Positions 430-64,000 of a stretch of DNA of 64,000 nucleotides are shown here, piece by piece. How positions within the stretch are numbered: position 1 is the stretch's first letter; every line of letters starts with the position of its first letter. Below the pieces are notes generated by a model, which saw nothing but the letters and a program-made list of their open reading frames with translations, had not been told where the DNA came from and ran no database searches. The position numbers and the translations under genes were made by a program. Location: contig CM000434.1 in the NCBI GenBank assembly GCA_000165345.1, forward strand, positions 448,001-512,000, in the 5' to 3' direction.

Positions 430-2841
430 ATGTATGTGGTGAACAGAAAGGGTGAAGAGGAGCCTGTATCATTTGACCAGATTCTTAGCAGAATCACTAA
501 ATTATCATATGGACTTCATCCACTTGTTGACCCAGCGAGGGTTACTCAAGCAGTGATAAATGGTCTATATAGTGGAATCAAAACATCTGAATTGGACGAA
601 CTTGCTTCGCAAACTTGTGCATATATGGCAGCTACCCACAATGATTTCTCTAAACTCGCTGCTCGGATATCGACTTCTAATCTACACAAAAATACTTCTT
701 CTGATATTGGTGATGTTGCATCGCAACTATATAATTTTAAAGACAATCAAGGTTGCCCTGCTCCTTTAATTTCAAAACCTGTTTATGATTTTATCATGGA
801 AAATAGAGAAAGAATTAATTCAAAAATTGATTTTTCAAAGGATTTTGAATACGATTATTTTGCCTTCAAAACTCTAGAAAGATCCTATCTTCTTAAAATT
901 GACAACAAAGTTGTGGAAAGACCACAACATCTTCTGATGCGGGTCTCTTGTGGTATTCATTGTGGTGATATTGAAGCTGCACTTGAAACATATGAGTTGT
1001 TATCGCAAAAATATTTTACTCATGCAACACCCACACTCTTTAATTCAGGCACTCCACGACCTCAAATGTCATCTTGTTTTTTACTCAGGATTCCAGAAGA
1101 TTCAATAAACGGTATCTTTGACACACTAACTAAATGCGCAAACATTAGTAAGACTGCGGGTGGTCTTGGGGTGGCAGTGAGTAATATTAGAGGAACTGGT
1201 TCATATATTCGAGGAACAAATGGGAGATCTAATGGATTAATTCCGATGCTGCGCGTTTATAATGACACTGCTAGGTATATTGATCAAGGTGGAGGGAAGC
1301 GTAAAGGTGCCATTGCAATTTATTTGGAGCCGTGGCACGTTGATGTTGTAGAGTTTATTGAAATCAGGAAGAATCACGGAAAGGAAGAGATGAGATGTCG
1401 CGATCTCTTTCCTGCCCTTTGGGTTCCTGATCTGTTCATGGAAAGAGTTGAGAAGGATCAAGATTGGACTCTAATGTGCCCAGATGAATGCAGGGGATTG
1501 CAAGATGTTTGGGGCGATGATTTTAAGAAGCTATATGAAGAGTATGAGAAACAAGGCCGTGGAAGGAAAACGATGAAAGCGCAGAAACTTTGGTTCTTAA
1601 TCTTACAGGCTCAAATTGAGACGGGGACACCATTTATTTGTTATAAAGATGCTGCAAATAGCAAAAGTAACCAGAAAAATTTGGGAACTATTGTTTCAAG
1701 TAACTTATGCACAGAAATCATAGAATACACTAGCACGGACGAAGTTGCCGTCTGTAATCTGGCGTCTATTGGCCTTCCAAAATTCGTTGATAAAAATAAC
1801 AAGACGTTTGATTTTGATAAGTTAAAAGAAGTTACGAAGGTGATTACGAGGAATTTGAATAAATTGATTGACGTTGGATATTATTCTCTCAAAGAGTGTA
1901 AAAAATCGAATTTAAGACATCGTCCATTGGGGATTGGCATTCAAGGGCTCGCAGACTGTTTTATGATGCTTCGTATGCCGTACGAGTCTGAGGGAGCTAA
2001 GAAGTTAAATAAACAAATTTTTGAAGTTATCTATTATGCAGCTCTCGACGCTAGCTGTGAGCTTGCAGAAAAATACGGGCCATACGAAACATATTCCGGT
2101 TCGCCTGCGAGTAAGGGTATTTTACAATTTGATATGTGGGGAGTTACACCAGACTCTGGACTTTGTGATTGGGATTTGCTTAAAGATAGGATTTCCAAAC
2201 ATGGTATTCGTAATTCTCTATTAATATCTCCAATGCCAACAGCATCCACTTCGCAAATTTTAGGTAACAATGAGAGTTTTGAGCCATTTACCTCGAACAT
2301 TTATCATCGTAGAGTACTATCTGGTGAGTTCTTTGTAGTAAATCCGCATTTGCTAAATGATTTACTAGAGCTTGGGTTATGGGATGATAGGCTTAAGCAG
2401 AATATTATTGCAAATAATGGCAGTATTCAAAATATACTTACAATTCCGGAAGATATACGCGAGCTTTATAAGACTGTATGGGAAATTAAGCAAAAGACAG
2501 TAATTGATATGGCTGCAGATAGGGGTCCATATGTTTGTCAATCGCAATCTTTGAACATTCATATGGAAAATGCTAACTTTGCAAAGTTATCATCTATGCA
2601 TTTTTATGGTTGGAAAAAAGGTCTAAAAACAGGCATTTATTATTTAAGGACCCAAAGCGCGACACGCCCCATACAATTTACAGTAGATCAACAACTCCTG
2701 AAATCGGAAACTAAAGAAAAGGATTCACTGGAGACTAACAAACGACAAGCACTCGAACCAGAGGCACAAAAGCTCATCGCTTGCCCATTAAGACCGACAA
2801 ATATGAAGGATGATGAAGAATGTATGATGTGTTCTGGTTAA
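430..2841 (+). CDS. Ribonucleotide reductase large (R1/alpha) subunit, class Ia
   Basis: 803-aa ORF with an N-terminal ATP-cone ('[20 protein letters not shown]'), catalytic-site motifs ('SNLCTEI', 'CNLASI', '[10 protein letters not shown]') and the C-terminal redox tail 'CMMCSG'. No introns needed. Confidence 0.95.
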
Positions 2842-3004
2842 ATAATAGGCTTCAGAGTTCATGGTTTTTAATCAAGTCTTTTAAAATATTTTTTATGCTT
2901 GGTTTTAAGTGTTAATTAGGTGATTCGGTAATTTATTCTTCCACACAGTACACACGCTTAGACCGCCAACTCAAATTGACATTTAAAATTTCTTATCCAC
3001 TGAA

Positions 3005-5434
3005 ATGAAATCTAGAATTATTCCCTCAAAGATTATCAAACTCGGCAAAAACCGAGTTTTTTGTAGGACTTTTCTAATTACTATTCTAATTTTTCTGATT
3101 TTTTTCTTTAAGCGAAGATTGGTGATCGATTTATTGTTGATTGTCGAACTTATATTAATTGACATTTTATTTTCAAAATTCCTAAAGAAAAAAAAGGCGA
3201 TTTACAGTTCTATAAGTTCTACAAATTTAAACTTGGAGAAAAGAAATTCTATTGAGCTTAAAAAATTATCTACTGATAGCTGTAATAACTCCCTTAAGCA
3301 ACAAAAAACTATTAAAAGCCTGAGCGATGACAGAAAATCACGAAAAATTGGGAGAAAAAAAAATAAGGGATATGGCTGGACTCTCACAATTATAGCCTCA
3401 TTAATATTGATATTTACGTCGTTTTATGAAAGCTTTATTGCTAACATTATTTATAAAGAATATTCTAATGAAAAGGAAATAACAAGCCTAATAGATCAAT
3501 ATTCGGAAGAAAGGAAGTATTATAGCAATGTTTTTAAATATAACCCTCCAATTAATTTACCTACTCTAGAATTTTCCAATTGGTTACTCACTAATTGGGT
3601 TTTTAGAACTATTTCAAATTTACCAATTTTATTTTCCGACTATTCAAATATTAAAAAAAAAGGAATTGAATATATCGAAACTGAATTTGATACGTTCATT
3701 AATTTGAAAAAAGGCTCAATATCGAATATAACTAATAATGAACTTGAAAATAGTAAGTTTGATGGGCAAGAAACAAATATTGATTTTGTTTCTGATTCAA
3801 GTGAATTCAATGAAAACGATAGAATAAGTATTGTAATTCCAGCTCATAACGAAGATGAATTTATTAGCAAAACAATAATCTTTACTATTGAGTCAACTCC
3901 AACTGAATTACTAAGAGAGATCATAATTGTTGATGATTTTAGTGAAAAACCAGTGTTTGAAATACTTGAAGAAGAACTTCCAGAAAATTATAAAAAATAT
4001 GTGAAAATAATTAGGTTAAAGAAATGTGAAGGTTTAATAAGATCAAAAATTATTGGTGCAGATGCTGCTTTAGGCCCTAACATATTTTTTTTAGATGGGC
4101 ATTGTAAACCAAAAAAGGGTTGGTCAGAAGCGCTAGTTAAATCAATTAGAGAAAATTACAAGAGAGTTGTATGCCCAATCGTCCAAAGTATTTCAAATAT
4201 TGATTGGAGTGATATAGGAACTGCTGGTGCGAAAATGATGATAGAATGGAACTTTGCATTCCATTGGTATGATGATGGATTACCAGAAATTCCAATAGCA
4301 TCTGGAGGAATATTAATGATTACAAAAAGATGGTGGGAAGAAAGTGGTAAATATGATCCAGGAATGCTTTATTGGGGTGGGGAAAATATTGAGCAAAGTT
4401 TTAGAGTATGGCTTTGCGGCGGAGAAATACATGTGGTAAGAAATTCTTTAGTTGGGCATATTTTTGAAAGAAATAATTCAAATAGAAGAAATCAAGATTT
4501 CCAATATAAAAAAATGTTAATTGATAATATGAATAGCAATCATCAAAGAACAGCATTTGTGTGGTTAAGCGAACAGTTTTATGAAACTTATTTCAAAAAT
4601 TATCATGTATTAGGTTATTTACCTATTAGTTATACTAAGGGCCTAAGCGAAAGACTTTCATTAAAACATATATTAAAGTGCAAACCTTTTGAATGGTATA
4701 TAGGAAAATTTAGACCGGCCTTTGAAAGGCAAGGCGAACTTTATTATAATTTCCACCACATTCAGCATGTAAAAAGCAAATTATGTCTCTCTATAGCAAA
4801 TAAACAGAATGATCGGATTGGAGTTGGAAAAGCTGAGATTGAAATTCCAATGACAGTGGTGCCAAACGATGTATCGAGATATAGCATTAAAACGACAACA
4901 GATTATGATATTTTAGCTTTAAAAACATGTAACTATCTTGATGAATCCCAAAAGTGGAGCTTTATCCTTGGAAATCGGATGTTATATAACTTCAAATCAA
5001 AGAAGTGCTTAGATAAAGCAAGTTCAGTTAATTTATTCAAAAAAATGAAGACAAAGGATTTTATATATTCTCCAAATAACAGCTCAGAATCTAATACTGA
5101 ACTAGAATTGCCTTTACTGTATGAGTGCGACTGGAATCTTGTAATGAGAGCAAGAAATTACAATCAATTTTGGGCATGGAAAGATATTGGCGATAAAAGT
5201 GGAAAAATCGTCAATTGGAGCGGCGATGAGCATAGATCAAATGTAACAGGGGGCGCAGAAGAATTCATAGTCCCAATAAACAAAGGAGTAGATAGCGAAA
5301 GTTACTGTTTGTATTCAAATACTGCTTTAGGTAGTTATGAAGAAACGAAAATGTTTTACAGTAATTGTAAAACAGAAAACAACTCTGAAGAAATTTCATT
5401 TAAGAAAATTTGGAGGCAAAATCTTTTTGTTTGA
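3005..5434 (+). CDS. Polypeptide N-acetylgalactosaminyltransferase (ppGalNAc-T, GT27) with C-terminal ricin-type lectin domain
   Basis: N-terminal signal-anchor ('FLITILIFLIFFF'), then a long low-complexity stem. GT-A motifs 'ISIVIPAHNE', 'IIVDDFS', the DxH motif 'FLDGHCKP' and the Gal/GalNAc-T motif 'WGGENIEQSFRVWLCGGEIHVV' are present. The C-terminal region has QxW-like repeats ('SQKWSF', 'NQFWAW'). The true start could be a downstream Met. Confidence 0.85.
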   Translation: MKSRIIPSKIIKLGKNRVFCRTFLITILIFLIFFFKRRLVIDLLLIVELILIDILFSKFLKKKKAIYSSISSTNLNLEKRNSIELKKLSTDSCNNSLKQQKTIKSLSDDRKSRKIGRKKNKGYGWTLTIIASLILIFTSFYESFIANIIYKEYSNEKEITSLIDQYSEERKYYSNVFKYNPPINLPTLEFSNWLLTNWVFRTISNLPILFSDYSNIKKKGIEYIETEFDTFINLKKGSISNITNNELENSKFDGQETNIDFVSDSSEFNENDRISIVIPAHNEDEFISKTIIFTIESTPTELLREIIIVDDFSEKPVFEILEEELPENYKKYVKIIRLKKCEGLIRSKIIGADAALGPNIFFLDGHCKPKKGWSEALVKSIRENYKRVVCPIVQSISNIDWSDIGTAGAKMMIEWNFAFHWYDDGLPEIPIASGGILMITKRWWEESGKYDPGMLYWGGENIEQSFRVWLCGGEIHVVRNSLVGHIFERNNSNRRNQDFQYKKMLIDNMNSNHQRTAFVWLSEQFYETYFKNYHVLGYLPISYTKGLSERLSLKHILKCKPFEWYIGKFRPAFERQGELYYNFHHIQHVKSKLCLSIANKQNDRIGVGKAEIEIPMTVVPNDVSRYSIKTTTDYDILALKTCNYLDESQKWSFILGNRMLYNFKSKKCLDKASSVNLFKKMKTKDFIYSPNNSSESNTELELPLLYECDWNLVMRARNYNQFWAWKDIGDKSGKIVNWSGDEHRSNVTGGAEEFIVPINKGVDSESYCLYSNTALGSYEETKMFYSNCKTENNSEEISFKKIWRQNLFV

Positions 5435-59422: not shown

Positions 59423-60085
59423 TTAAAGGCAGCTAAGTAGGTATATTGCAAAACTATAAAAAATGAGTGCAAGCGGTAATTGATATATTATAAAGTCGTA
59501 TAATGCATTAAATAAATATATAAACCACTCTTTAAGATTTTTTTTTACCGATTTTATTGAAATATTTGTGCATGAAAATTCTGGATTACAAAACTTGCAT
59601 TGCTTATTACATGCGGACTTCATTCTAATCAAAGAACGCCTAAATTTACTTTTCTGCCAAGTATTATTTAGTTTTGTATTACATCGTTTATTTGATAATG
59701 ATTTATCTACGTAATTTGTGAACATTACCATATTTTTTGGAACAGTATTCAAAATATCCTCTCCGAAATACTTCTTAGGAGTAGTTAGAAGTTTATTTGA
59801 TTGTGTAAATGAGTATTCTTTATTATATCTCTTTTTAACTGGGGTTCTGTTCAAACAATCATTAACTAATAATCGATCATCGGATCCTAAATAATCCAAA
59901 TGTTCTTCATAGTTCTCACTTTTGGAATTTTGTATTTTAATAAGTAGATCTGTTTCCTCAAACAACGAGAGATTTTTTTCATTTGTTCCTTTAGAGAAGG
60001 TATTTATTAACTTTAAATCATCTCTTTCTTTTTCTTTTGGTGTTTCAGGAAGAAATAAAGTGCTCATTATGTAAAATATAAACAA
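59423..60085 (-). CDS. Small tail-anchored-type membrane protein, hypothetical
   Basis: 220 aa, hydrophilic and K/E/N-rich, with a Cys cluster ('CNKQCKFCNPEFSC') and a single C-terminal TM 'FIIYQLPLALIFYSFAIYLLSCL' at the extreme C-terminus. The first Met may actually be the 'MSTLF' Met. Confidence 0.45.
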   Translation of the reverse strand: MFIFYIMSTLFLPETPKEKERDDLKLINTFSKGTNEKNLSLFEETDLLIKIQNSKSENYEEHLDYLGSDDRLLVNDCLNRTPVKKRYNKEYSFTQSNKLLTTPKKYFGEDILNTVPKNMVMFTNYVDKSLSNKRCNTKLNNTWQKSKFRRSLIRMKSACNKQCKFCNPEFSCTNISIKSVKKNLKEWFIYLFNALYDFIIYQLPLALIFYSFAIYLLSCL

Positions 60086-60353
60086 AATTTACAAAAATGT
60101 GGGTCAAGTTACGGCGGGAATATCGAAACTAAATTTTTAACTCTGGAGATTGAGTATAAAAAAATTTGTTATCCCATTTTCTTCCCTTTACTGGTAAAAC
60201 AGTAATTCCTAAAAAATATTTGGCCTAAAACAATGTATCATAAACATACCTGGTCCATCACTAGATGAAAACCAATAATTATCTCTTTTTGCAATTCTCG
60301 AGCTTTTTCTGATCTCAGAATCGGTTAATAATAATTCAGCCTAATAAATTAGT

Positions 60354-61429
60354 TTAATTTCTCTGAGTCCTTCCAAAACTTACCTTTGAATATAGGGATA
60401 TTAGTGCTGTTTCTACTTTAAGAATTCTATCTCCCATATTCACGACTTTGAATCCCATTGTAATTAAGTCTGTCAATTCTTCTTTTGTCCAACCTCCTTC
60501 AGGTCCAATAGCAAGGATAATTGGTCCAGTGTGGCTTTGTAATCCTATTTCAGTAATCTTGCTGTTGCCTAAGACATCAGCAACAATTCCAATCATGCTT
60601 TCTTTGCAAAAAAAATAATTCCTAATATTGTTAATGTTTAACAAAAAGGAAGTAAAGTTTCTTACCTTAAATGCTGTAGAAAAAATGTCCAAGAAGCATA
60701 AACATAAACATCTGGGCACAATGTTTTTGATGCCTGTTCAAGCCCAAGCTGTACAATTTCATCAATAGACTCTTTTTTTAACTTGGATGAATTTAAATAC
60801 GACTTTTCGGATTTATCAGTACAAACAAAAATTATTCTTCCAACTCCAATTGTAACCGCATTTTGAAGTACTTTCTCAAACACTTTTGGTCTAGGAAGTG
60901 CAATTAATAAGTCGATTAAGGGGTAATCATGTTTATATTCCTCTTTATGAATTTCTGTATCTAACTTAATTGTAACTGCATATTGAAAATTATTTAAATT
61001 ATTGATTTCCGAAATAGATCTTCTGGATCTATTATTTACTTTATTACCTATTTCTTCAATGCTAGATAAGTTAATTATTGATTCTGATTTGGTTATTCCA
61101 TCTTTATTAGTTTCTTTTCTCATTATTTTGGTTACTGTTGCAGTTCCTTTTCCAGAGTTTTTAACTCCAACATTAACTTTTGAGCCAATATTAATTTCCA
61201 GAACTGAGATACAATGATTGGACTGTCTGGAGGATAGCTCAACAGTTAGGTCTTCATTAATATCCTTTTTATCAATAATGATTAAGTTCATTAGAATTGA
61301 TGGAAAAATGACCATTATGGCGGTATGATCTGCATTAAGACTGGATCTTCTCGCATGGTGCATAAGAAAGATACGATCACATAATAAAACTAAGCTAACA
61401 AAAGATTGGGTTTCGTATTGAAAGATCAT
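60354..61429 (-). CDS. RsmE-like SPOUT-class RNA methyltransferase (16S rRNA m3U1498 methyltransferase family), two exons
   Basis: Exon 1 is 61429..60666 and exon 2 is 60621..60354 (minus strand). The 44-nt intron 60665..60622 has donor GTAAGA and acceptor ATATTAG. Splicing joins '...LGLEQASKTLCPDVYVYASWTFFLQHL' to 'RNYFFCKESMIGIVADVLG...IGPEGGWTKEELTDLITMGFKVVNMGDRILKVETALISLYS'. The last stretch matches the RsmE C-terminal motif 'iGPEGGf..eE......GF..vsLG.RILRtETAa'. The track shows this as two overlapping ORFs in different frames. Confidence 0.75.
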
Positions 61430-61446
61430 TTATTTTTTATTTGAAA

Positions 61447-64000
61447 ATGCCTTTATATTTTCAAGATGACTTATTCTCAATAACGAAAGATCAAAAAAAA
61501 TATATTAACATCAAAAGGTATACTTTAAAATCAATCATTTTTTTTTAAATAACTTTTTTAGTCTGATAAGAACAACCTTTACTTTTGTTTACAGTATTTT
61601 TATTTTTACTACTGCAGTTTTAGTCTTAAATAAATATTATTCATTTCCTGGAATTGTTGCAATTGGTAAGTTAATAATAATATATTAAGCAATTTCAACT
61701 TCGTATCCTAAGTATTTAACAGTGGAATTTTTTTTTTCTTATATATAATTATTGAGTGGTTTAATCTTCCAAAATTTTTAAATTGGAATATTTCATATTT
61801 TTTGATTAAAAGAAAACTCTATAAATCATCTACAAGAATTTTTCAAAAAAAAGTCAGCAGACCGTAAGTTTATAATGTTTTTTAGAAAATTATTAATGGT
61901 TTTTAGGTATTTGAAAAACTCGAACCTTAAAAAAAATAAAAATGAACTAGAAGAGTGTATTGAGATTGATTGTAAAAGTGGAAGTTCAGAATCGTTTAAT
62001 GAAACTGGATTATATGACTATGCATTTGATCATTCAATAATTTCTAAAGCTGCTTCAGATGATTGGGTAGCTGCAATACCTCGAATACATAAACAAGTGG
62101 GTTTAAATTTTTCAATTTTAGATTTATCATTTTTAGGTTATGAGCAATGAATTTTATTCAAACAAATTATTTACATTAAAAGGAGTTGAATTGATTCATT
62201 GGGGAATTCATACAGGTTACCCAAGTTTTTCCCAATTATTAAAAAATACATCAGAAATACTTAGTTCATTTATTGAAATGTGTTTTAGGCAAACACAAAC
62301 GCCTGCATATCAAACAGGTAAGGTTTTATTAACTTATTTTGTTAAAATAATATTTTTAGGCCACATTGTAAAATCAATGTTGTGGTCCGGGGTGTATATT
62401 TGGGCAACAACAAAGATGTATCGTAAAAATAATAATGACCCATGGAATTTTAAACGTATTCCGGAGATTTACTATTTTTTTGAATCAACATTTTTGTGGA
62501 TGCTTTCCTATGATTATGTAATTGGTACGCACTAAAATAATTTATATGAAAAGTTGATTTTTGTTTCAGGTTTAATAGCAATATGGTATAGAAAAGAGAG
62601 TACAATACGTTATATTTTCAATTTTTATCAAATTATTGACTTTTTGTCGCTTCCTCCGTTCTTATTGTTTATAATTACAATAAGCCCACAATACGAATCA
62701 AGCCAAAGTTGGTTATTAATGTAAGTTTAGCAATATTTTTTTCAAACTTCAAATATTTGATTAGATTCGGGTGGTTAAGATTTTTAAGACTATTTCGAAC
62801 AGAAAAAGTGTTGGATATGTTATTTCCACATGTTTCTGCAATAAAAAGAAGAGTTATCGGTAAGACATTCTTTCTTTAATGATATTTTTTACTAAAATAA
62901 TTAGGAATTTTTGCTGGTGCGATAACCATCATTTTAACTCATGCTGGTGCAATATTTACGATAGAGTCACCATCGGAAAAAGAATATAATAGTTTGTTTG
63001 ATTATTTGTATTATTCAGTTGTAACAATTGGTACTGTAGGTTATGGCGACTTTTCACCTCGAAAAAGAGAAGGAAGACTAGCTACAATCATTTTGATCAC
63101 CCTGACCTTAGTTTTACTTCCTCATGAATTTCAAAGACTAAAAGAAGCATTAAATACACCACCAGATTCAATTGGATCATTTATTAGGAAAAATGATACA
63201 TATTTGTGTATTATTGGACCAATTCCACCAAAGGTAAGTTAATTATGCTCTTTGCAATATTTTAACACTTTCTTAAAGCAGTTGTTATTTATTACAAAAA
63301 GTCTTTCTCTGCAAAAACAAAGAAGATTCAAATCTATAGTACTTGTGACACCAATACAAATTTTAGAATATCAAAACATAGTTAAAATATCACAACAAAG
63401 AGGTTATATTCGATTAAGTATAAAGCAGGGTTTTTTAGGATCTGCAATCAATAACCTGGTCCAATATAGCTCTATTGTTTTAATTTATGGATCAGAGAAG
63501 CCAATATTACATGATGTTATTTGTAATGAAGGAACGCAAAAAAGTGACTTTGATGCACTGATTACTGTAATGTGTAAGCGATAAAATGAATAATTATGAT
63601 TAATAATATGAATTTTAGGTCTGACTAATTTATTGGGGCTAAAAGATAAATTTTTTCTTATTTTTTATTCATCGCAAGTTGCAAGTTTATCAAAGATAAC
63701 TGGAGTATTAGGGAGCCTATCTTTAGAGAATTTAAGAATTAAATTATTAAGCAAATGTATAAGTAATTGTCCAGGGTTTCTACCAATTATGCTACATCTT
63801 ATTATACCAAAGAATGAAAACATGCTTAAAAAGCTCCAGGAACCACCAAAAAATACATTTTTTACTAGTAATATCGATAGATCAAAAATTACCCCATATG
63901 AATGGAAATGTAGATGGAGGGGACTGCATTTTAAGGTTTATACATTAAGATTTCCAAACTCATTTTTTGGATATCCAATACAAATTTTTACGAAGTATAT
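61447..64000 (+). CDS. Voltage-sensor-containing K+ channel with cytoplasmic RCK-like domain (BK/Slo-like), multi-exon, 3' partial at window end
   Basis: Proposed exons: 61447..61517, 61562..61665, 61713..61863, 61907..62136, 62183..62317, 62360..62524, 62570..62720, 62765..62859, 62905..63233, 63279..63573, 63619..>64000. All ten introns are 42-47 nt (GTAAG/GTATAC/GTACGC/GTTATG donors, YAG acceptors) and the phases are consistent throughout. The spliced product has an S4-like 'WLRFLRLFRTEKV' (R at every third position), pore helix plus selectivity filter 'YYSVVTIGTVGYGDFSP', S6 'LATIILITLTLVLL', and a post-S6 'YLCIIGPIPP' resembling the Slo 'HIVVCG' start of RCK1. The ORF track splits this into at least 4 ORFs. 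Confidence 0.75.

Follow-up and report, generated by a model that had tools for sequence, protein, structure and literature searches.

RsmE enzymes, exemplified by Escherichia coli RsmE (YggJ), join a PUA-like domain to a knotted SPOUT domain and methylate N3 of a uridine, U1498, in the 16S rRNA of the bacterial 30S subunit. Plant RsmE proteins are organelle-targeted, carry N-terminal presequences and act on organellar 16S rRNA. Apart from a few plant members the family is bacterial (PMC1829167), and the bacterial enzyme requires an assembled small subunit (PMC9508554). Here we describe an RsmE-type gene of Cryptosporidium parvum, a parasite without organellar genomes. It lies on the minus strand of a 64,000-nucleotide window of chromosome 6 (GenBank CM000434.1, positions 448,001 to 512,000; 30% G+C across the window), and all coordinates below are those of the window. 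The bare observation of an RsmE is not new: public annotation already contains the gene, its label and its introns. What emerges from our analysis is that the gene probably encodes a non-organellar member of an old apicomplexan and chromerid subfamily, in which the bacterial-like core begins without a presequence and is followed by a C-terminal tail of its own. We put the probability that the identity, structure and non-organellar nature of this gene are correctly described here at roughly 0.8, a figure that excludes the question of its substrate.

Membership of the RsmE/SPOUT family had been proposed in a first-pass annotation made from the sequence alone, with a search against Pfam PF04452 as the check. 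That search gave a clear match (E=1.3e-33; 116.3 bits against a cut-off of 23.9) over residues 172-334, a span that crosses the exon junction at residues 254/255; the TIGR00046 RsmE model scored 94.6 bits (cut-off 41). The Pfam PUA_4 match is by itself sub-threshold (19.4 vs 23.9). An AlphaFold2 model, built for the C. meleagridis ortholog from a 12-sequence clade alignment (mean predicted local distance difference test score, pLDDT, 78.6), predicts the two-domain RsmE fold, with an N-terminal PUA-like β-barrel and a C-terminal α/β trefoil knot: in a Foldseek search of the PDB, all of the 28 best matches are RsmE, with target-normalised template modelling (TM) scores of 0.73-0.80 over ~295-305 columns, and they cover both the PUA-like domain and the knotted domain.

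The C-terminal signature on which the original proposal rested is present too: IGPEGGWT and GDRILKVETA align to the knot of RsmE structures that binds S-adenosylmethionine (SAM). In a profile-to-PDB alignment that took in SAM-bound structures (5vm8, 5o96 and 2z0y) as well as 5o95, 1v6z and 1vhk, the GPEGG(W/F), G-x-R-I-L-K/R-x-E-T-A and LEQ (E-Q) motifs are all retained, and the knot and active-site motif positions are invariant or nearly so in the 12-sequence clade alignment. The active-site residues of RsmE are an Arg and a Gln (Tkaczuk 2007, PMC1829167). Also of interest is a low-complexity insert, rich in Ser, Asn and Lys, in the PUA-like domain (~60940..61115, minus strand; residues ~59-118 counted from M47, the conserved start described below); it is specific to Cryptosporidium and variable in length, being ~30 residues longer in C. 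serpentis.

Two overlapping minus-strand open reading frames (ORFs), 60662..61429 and 60354..60719, occupy the locus. The suggestion that they join into one protein is borne out: removal of a 44-nt GTAAGA...TAG intron (60665..60622) connects them in phase 2 and in frame, and the resulting 343-residue product is 100% identical to GenBank CAD98502.1, which falls in one 90% cluster together with proteins from C. hominis, C. meleagridis and C. tyzzeri, labelled by several sources as 'Ribosomal RNA small subunit methyltransferase E'. Two other elements of that first gene model, a single intron and a 3' end at 60354, had to be given up. A second 5' splice site occurs at 60383, with the sequence AAG|GTAAGT, and the 'VSFGRTQRN' C-terminus of the 343-residue version is translated intron 2 (nine residues and a stop). 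A brute-force search for GT..AG introns recovered an exact match to a 390-residue public model named RsmE (QOY41093.1 / WRK32812.1), which has four exons, three introns (44, 43 and 41 nt) and a stop at 60129.

Introns 1 and 2 keep their position and phase in C. parvum, C. hominis, C. meleagridis, C. canis and C. serpentis. Across these five species intron 1 is 44-55 nt long and exon 2 is always 238 nt, and the introns diverge faster than the coding sequence (C. canis identity 0.66 and 0.63, vs 0.80 for exon 2). Intron 3 is likewise found in all five species after correction of the C. serpentis model. As annotated (locus L008, 5150..5250), the C. serpentis model translates intron 3; once this is spliced out at KPG|GTAATT...TTCAG, the tail becomes 'LLILPTRSKK*', and the deposited C-terminus (NLKWFPHCYLF...) is, by this comparison, probably wrong. 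The introns therefore have the attributes of spliceosomal introns: GT..AG borders, a restored reading frame, conserved position and phase, and divergence above that of the exons. The 390-residue public models also imply splicing, yet may themselves be predictions. Taken together, these comparisons indicate that the locus is a four-exon minus-strand nuclear gene, whose coding sequence most likely runs from 61291 to 60129 and specifies 344 residues (Table 1).

This model also moves the start codon. The first-pass annotation had begun the protein at ATG 61429 while suspecting a mis-called start, and the suspicion was correct: the conserved start is M47 of the long protein, at ATG 61291. In a DNA alignment, a 1-nt indel ~20 nt upstream of ATG 61291 separates the frame of C. 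parvum from that of C. hominis and C. meleagridis, and because it shifts the frame, the upstream protein differs between C. parvum and C. hominis. The N-terminal extension reads MIVSFLCTMRED... in the C. hominis/C. meleagridis frame vs MIFQYETQSF... in C. parvum; similarly, the models from C. hominis, C. meleagridis and C. tyzzeri read MIVSFLCTMREDPVLMQIIPP..., and the C. parvum model reads MIFQYETQSFVSL.... The C. hominis upstream frame is closed in C. parvum by a TAA, and ATGTGA is also present there; in C. canis, numerous indels break up the stretch that precedes MNLIIID. An MNL(I/L) start, on the other hand, is found in models from C. canis, C. xiaoi, C. felis, chipmunk genotype I and C. 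serpentis, and also in Porospora, Toxoplasma, Neospora, Besnoitia, Cystoisospora, Eimeria and Babesia species; the two exceptions, an ENA Porospora gene call (P0010) and a fused B. caballi model (P0143), are over-long. Position 1 of the bacterial profile NF008699 aligns to residue 47 of the long protein, and residues equivalent to the extension have pLDDT <50. These data most likely identify ATG 61291, rather than 61429, as the true RsmE start. The alternative start that had been offered at MHHARRSS (M23) is not conserved: it lies in the portion that is frame-shifted in sister species and absent elsewhere. If the transcript began upstream of 61429, its leader would contain AUGs at 61429, 61363 and 61314; in C. 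hominis, the first upstream AUG begins a short ORF in a different frame, overlapping the main start. Two possibilities follow: the RsmE 5' untranslated region (UTR) would be very short, or these upstream AUGs would act as upstream ORFs.

Another key observation is that this gene is not peculiar to Cryptosporidium. By profile search and an exhaustive hidden Markov model (HMM) search, we recovered orthologs from Porospora cf. gigantea, several gregarine-type transcriptome and run-assembly sequences, Toxoplasma, Hammondia, Neospora, Besnoitia, Cystoisospora, Eimeria, Babesia bovis, B. ovis, B. ovata, B. caballi, Vitrella and Chromera. An HMM score gap sets this myzozoan clade (>=264 bits) apart from bacterial sequences (~250 residues; <=235 bits). 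The clade, with a truncated piroplasm-like fragment counted in, emerges as a single bipartition in 73.5% of 200 neighbour-joining bootstraps, in a tree that is distance-based (numpy) rather than maximum likelihood and that was built without plant, alphaproteobacterial or cyanobacterial sequences. The orthologs have the motifs LPRPK, KSYLSS and PEVYVYASW in common. They also carry a C-terminal extension that is absent from bacterial RsmE: an LLL(T/N/Q)DxxLR element, conserved in Toxoplasma, Babesia, Chromera, Vitrella and gregarines, then a variable linker, and finally a basic h-x-h-L-P-x-K/R motif (LLILPTRSKK in C. serpentis, TVQLPERDWK in Porospora, SVKLPVKGRR in Chromera, VVRLPIKGAK in Vitrella, RIIVLPQKF in Toxoplasma). 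Intron 2 of the Cryptosporidium gene, which divides the bacterial-like core from this extension, matches the final intron of the T. gondii gene (VIAQ|LNMLL) in both alignment column and phase.

These features bear on the origin of the gene. The nearest named bacterial relatives belong to deltaproteobacterial and PVC-group (Planctomycetes, Verrucomicrobia, Chlamydiae) lineages and similar metagenome-assembled genomes (Desulfobulbaceae, Phycisphaerales, Verrucomicrobia), at ~28-30% identity, and neither alphaproteobacteria nor cyanobacteria are among them. That the closest non-eukaryotic relatives are bacterial at such identity might be taken to suggest bacterial contamination or a recent horizontal transfer into Cryptosporidium, but we give next to no credence to either: three spliceosomal introns interrupt the gene, it shares the AT-rich composition of the host, the same neighbours (the K+ channel gene and a 214-residue gene) flank it in five Cryptosporidium species and in chromosome-level assemblies, and orthologs with a common intron and tail extend across the Myzozoa. 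The earlier view that this is a bona fide nuclear gene rather than contamination is thus upheld by synteny and introns conserved in five species, whereas the horizontal acquisition raised alongside it, in its Cryptosporidium-specific form, is contradicted by the gregarine, coccidian, piroplasm, Chromera and Vitrella orthologs and by the intron position shared with Toxoplasma. By these comparisons of sequence, the gene is an old nuclear gene, passed down vertically within the lineage of chromerids and apicomplexans.

The gene is under purifying selection. The nonsynonymous-to-synonymous substitution rate ratio (dN/dS) for RsmE is 0.12 between C. parvum and C. meleagridis and 0.125 between C. 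parvum and C. canis; by part, it is 0.04-0.10 in the SPOUT domain, 0.02-0.09 in the PUA domain and, for the insert of the latter, 0.2-0.3. The whole genus, down to the deeply branching C. serpentis, shows continued selection.

Where, then, might such an enzyme act? The absence of organellar ribosomes had been recognised as a paradox from the outset, and the paradox is real. To our knowledge, Cryptosporidium has no plastid. Its mitochondrial genome has been wholly lost, as is probably also the case in Porosporoidea (PMC8051059). With no organellar genomes, the canonical substrate, a bacterial-type small-subunit (SSU) rRNA, is absent from Cryptosporidium. We found no presequence before the PUA domain; the orthologs begin at the bacterial N-terminus. 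Further information comes from the T. gondii ortholog, which we identified as TGME49_209240 ('RNA methyltransferase') through its sequence in a supplement to PMC7670262. In that study the protein was seen in 3/3 experiments of hyperplexed localisation of organelle proteins by isotope tagging (hyperLOPIT), with a SignalP call of 'OTHER' and 0 transmembrane domains; the Markov chain Monte Carlo (MCMC) analysis assigned it to the '19S proteasome' class with a probability of ~1, and the maximum a posteriori (MAP) analysis to cytosol/outlier (PMC7670262). We take the '19S proteasome' placement to mean soluble cytosolic complexes, not mitochondrion or apicoplast. The T. gondii fractionation and the missing presequences together support a non-organellar role for the whole myzozoan subfamily.

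Bearing in mind the predicted fold, we hypothesize that the N-terminal PUA-like domain, broken by its fast-evolving low-complexity insert, would bind RNA, and that the C-terminal trefoil-knot domain would bind SAM; the ~55-residue tail that follows ends in the basic h-x-h-L-P-x-K/R motif. The enzyme would dimerise and, by analogy with bacterial RsmE, would methylate N3 of a uridine outside any organelle. Since C. parvum has no bacterial-type SSU rRNA, the substrate would have to be a cytosolic or nuclear RNA. The most obvious candidate is the uridine that corresponds to E. coli U1498 in the universally conserved helix 44 (h44) stretch of 18S rRNA, which the enzyme might encounter in late 40S particles.

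A number of observations weigh against this picture, some with regard to location and others to substrate. The C. parvum reference annotations retain the long N-terminus, labelled 'transmembrane domain-containing'. In T. gondii, the MAP call for TGME49_209240 is 'unknown' (outlier) and the confident call comes from MCMC only; moreover, cultured parasites can do without the gene (CRISPR score 0.01), and its dN/dS is fairly high at 0.53 (PMC7670262). Together with the otherwise bacterial character of the family and its few plant members (PMC1829167), the hydrophobic 46-residue N-terminus of the C. parvum annotation and the dispensability of the T. gondii ortholog might point to a relic of organellar translation, either imported into the mitosome by way of the N-terminal extension or encoded by a gene that is being lost. 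We consider this very improbable. The extension lies in differing frames in sister species and is absent from all other orthologs, and on these grounds we rejected the 46 residues as a targeting signal for mitosome or membrane; the mitosome, lacking a genome, also lacks rRNA (PMC8051059); a dN/dS of ~0.12, and of 0.04-0.10 in the catalytic domain, indicates that selection is maintained; and the T. gondii ortholog falls outside the mitochondrial and apicoplast hyperLOPIT classes.

As to substrate, all 23 of the 23 equivalog NCBIfam models for the U1498 enzyme score below their cut-offs (the best, NF008700, at 173.7 vs 252 bits), so U1498 specificity cannot be transferred to the Cryptosporidium protein. 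Eukaryotes are generally said to have no 3-methyluridine (m3U) in SSU rRNA (PMC1829167). Furthermore, the base methylations reported for the Babesia divergens 80S ribosome by cryo-electron microscopy and nanopore sequencing are 7-methylguanosine (m7G), two N6,N6-dimethyladenosines (m6,2A), 1-methyladenosine (m1A) and 5-methylcytidine (m5C), with no m3U among them (PMC13542104). Its authors compared against sites already known from human and Leishmania, and the nanopore data of the study reported sites of 2'-O-methylation and pseudouridylation (PMC13542104); an unexpected m3U could therefore have been missed. The species of this comparison is B. divergens; the Babesia orthologs that we found are from B. 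bovis, B. ovis, B. ovata and B. caballi.

An RsmE-type enzyme that writes m3U at the h44 uridine of cytosolic 18S rRNA would be consistent with the intact RsmE fold and motifs, with the universal conservation of the local h44 sequence, with the lack of a presequence and the cytosolic fractionation of the T. gondii ortholog, and with the fact that cytosolic ribosomes are the only ribosomes in Cryptosporidium. Bacterial RsmE, moreover, works on assembled small subunits (PMC9508554). Yet the Babesia map contains no m3U among its five base methylations, m3U is generally absent from eukaryotic SSU rRNA, the equivalog scores stay below their thresholds, and in T. gondii the ortholog groups with the 19S proteasome class rather than with the 40S class. 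We therefore regard this target as rather unlikely; if it were true, it would amount to a bacterial-style decoding-centre methylation in myzozoan 40S subunits.

Some of the same observations also fit with another cytosolic or nuclear RNA (28S rRNA, tRNA, or a small nuclear or nucleolar RNA), or with a role mainly in RNA binding or assembly in which the tail would direct the enzyme to a new partner. The clade-specific tail and the PUA insert have no counterpart in bacterial RsmE, the equivalog thresholds are not reached, no m3U is reported for Babesia rRNA (PMC13542104), and the ortholog co-fractionates with a class of large cytosolic complexes that is not ribosomal. No positive evidence for any alternative substrate came to light, and the conserved catalytic and SAM-binding motifs speak against a purely structural role; we would place this possibility well short of an even chance, though slightly ahead of the h44 target. 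The broader idea, that a tail-tethered cytosolic myzozoan RsmE installs m3U at the 40S decoding centre or on other cytosolic RNA and has been overlooked in apicomplexan maps, is offered as a tentative proposal.

In the literature that we searched, we found no paper on a presequence-less, tail-bearing myzozoan RsmE subfamily, and the literature on m3U, 18S and Toxoplasma returned generic matches only. The significance of such a subfamily is that it cannot serve organellar ribosomes in Cryptosporidium or eugregarines. Cryptosporidium, being without organellar ribosomes, would provide a natural proof, if our reading is true, that the job of this enzyme is non-organellar. What had been a vague annotation now poses a question, open to testing, about an RNA modification not yet recognised in parasites of importance. 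The analysis has also yielded, as by-products, a corrected start codon and 3' exons for RsmE, and 5' exons of the neighbouring K+ channel that are missing from C. parvum reference annotations.

The revised start redefines the relationship of RsmE to that channel gene, which is transcribed in the opposite direction. The first-pass annotation had described the two genes as head-to-head, 17 bp apart, with overlapping divergent 5' UTRs. ATGs do exist at 61429 (minus strand) and 61447 (plus strand), 17 bp apart, but the distance between conserved start codons is 155 bp, since the RsmE start is at 61291 and the conserved channel ATG at 61447; the tight head-to-head arrangement and the UTR overlap are an artefact of the over-extended RsmE ORF. 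The intervening region presumably holds a bidirectional promoter together with both 5' leaders. This spacing is short, though unremarkable for the compact Cryptosporidium genome; in C. serpentis, the annotated starts of RsmE and the channel are 273 bp apart.

Exon 1 of the channel has 43% protein identity to its C. serpentis counterpart (FTIAKDSDYRVINIK), and exon 2 has 69% (E=6e-14). The channel is annotated from the equivalent of 61447 in C. meleagridis and C. serpentis. In the C. parvum references it starts at 62140 (CP141123.1) or 61896 (CM109966.1), and at least four conserved coding exons lie upstream of the reference starts (61447..62140, plus strand); judged by this conservation, the C. 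parvum reference models appear to be 5'-truncated. In C. canis, no channel is annotated in the sequence upstream of RsmE (locus L007, 1..4000), and a tblastn search of it with the C. parvum channel exons, pore included, gave no match; despite this lack of a protein-level match, the C. canis DNA upstream of RsmE is still roughly alignable. The absence could reflect a pseudogene, loss or an assembly problem.

On the other side of RsmE, a 214-residue gene without a Pfam match (59423..60067, minus strand) starts 61 bp past the RsmE stop codon. Some annotations splice RsmE into this gene to give fusions of 452-534 residues (C. canis P0002, C. felis P0006, C. meleagridis P0125); in the chromosome-level annotations of C. 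parvum and C. meleagridis, RsmE and this gene stand as two distinct genes. An E2F-like GGCGGGAA site between the RsmE stop and the next ATG (60113..60120) was considered and set aside as not significant: it is the single copy in the window, and at least one copy occurred in 23 of 100 shuffles. A 3090-bp contig from JGI 3300019010 carries a 412-residue gene of the same length twice, in inverted orientation (85-1323, plus; 1852-3090, minus), which is probably an inverted-repeat assembly artefact.

Table 1. Features of the RsmE locus and the adjoining K+ channel gene, in window coordinates
Feature	Positions	Strand	Description
RsmE exon 1	60666..61291	-	conserved ATG 61291..61289 (MNLIIID); PUA-like domain and first half of SPOUT domain
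RsmE intron 1	60622..60665	-	44 nt, GTAAGA...TAG, phase 2, in-frame TAA at 5' end
RsmE exon 2	60384..60621	-	238 nt; C-terminal half of SPOUT trefoil knot
GPEGGW motif	60506..60489	-	in exon 2
GDRILKVETA motif	60434..60405	-	in exon 2
RsmE intron 2	60341..60383	-	43 nt, GTAAGT...TAG, phase 0, between YSK and AELLL
RsmE exon 3	60250..60340	-	opens the clade-specific C-terminal extension (AELLLTDSEIRKSSRIAKRDNYWFSSSDGP)
RsmE intron 3	60209..60249	-	41 nt, GTATGT...TAG, phase 1
RsmE exon 4 and stop	60129..60208	-	basic tail motif ITVLPVKGRKW at 60206..60174
Upstream ORF extension	61292..61429	-	46 codons; taken as protein N-terminus by C. parvum annotations; most likely non-coding (promoter or 5' leader)
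Divergent region	61292..61446		155 bp between both conserved start codons
BK-type K+ channel exon 1	61447..61517	+	MPLYFQDDLFSITKDQKKYINIK; followed by a 44-nt intron, then exon 2
BK-type K+ channel exon 2	61562..61665	+	encodes a transmembrane helix

Compared with E. coli RsmE and the bacterial RsmE structures (4e8b, 5vm8, 1nxz, 1vhk, 5o96), the Cryptosporidium protein has the same PUA-like and SPOUT domains and the same knot and EQ motifs, but identity to the structures is merely 14-21%, and it has ~45 residues inserted in the PUA domain and a 55-residue tail with a basic motif; unlike its bacterial counterparts, the gene is nuclear and contains introns, and its host has no 16S rRNA and hence no 30S U1498. 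The best-scoring models, NF008700 and NF008699 (PRK11713.5-4 and PRK11713.5-2), reach 173.7 and 150.5 bits against cut-offs of 252 and 265. Uncultured bacterial sequences such as P0260, P0264 and P0265 share the MNL(I/L) start, ALPRP and EKSY(F/L)xS with the Cryptosporidium protein; the bacterial proteins end directly after the last SPOUT helix. Much closer are T. gondii TGME49_209240 and the other apicomplexan and chromerid orthologs, which have the same start, PRPK, KSYLSS and PEVYVYASW motifs, tail and one intron position; the Toxoplasma gene differs in having six introns and large acidic or low-complexity inserts that are unrelated to the Cryptosporidium PUA insert and are placed elsewhere. 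The plant homologues (COG1385) are, like the Cryptosporidium gene, eukaryotic nuclear genes of the same Pfam family (PMC1829167), and none was among the nearest relatives of the myzozoan clade in our profile and HMM searches. Finally, functional analogues are found in the eukaryotic enzymes that write m3U, SPOUT1/Ptch (28S) and Bmt5/Bmt6 (25S), and in the SPOUT enzyme Nep1/Emg1 (18S), which use SAM to methylate the base of a uridine or pseudouridine within cytosolic rRNA; they belong to other families and folds (PF02598, Rossmann-type and PF03587, respectively) and act at other sites, with a relationship to RsmE at the level of the SPOUT superfamily at most.

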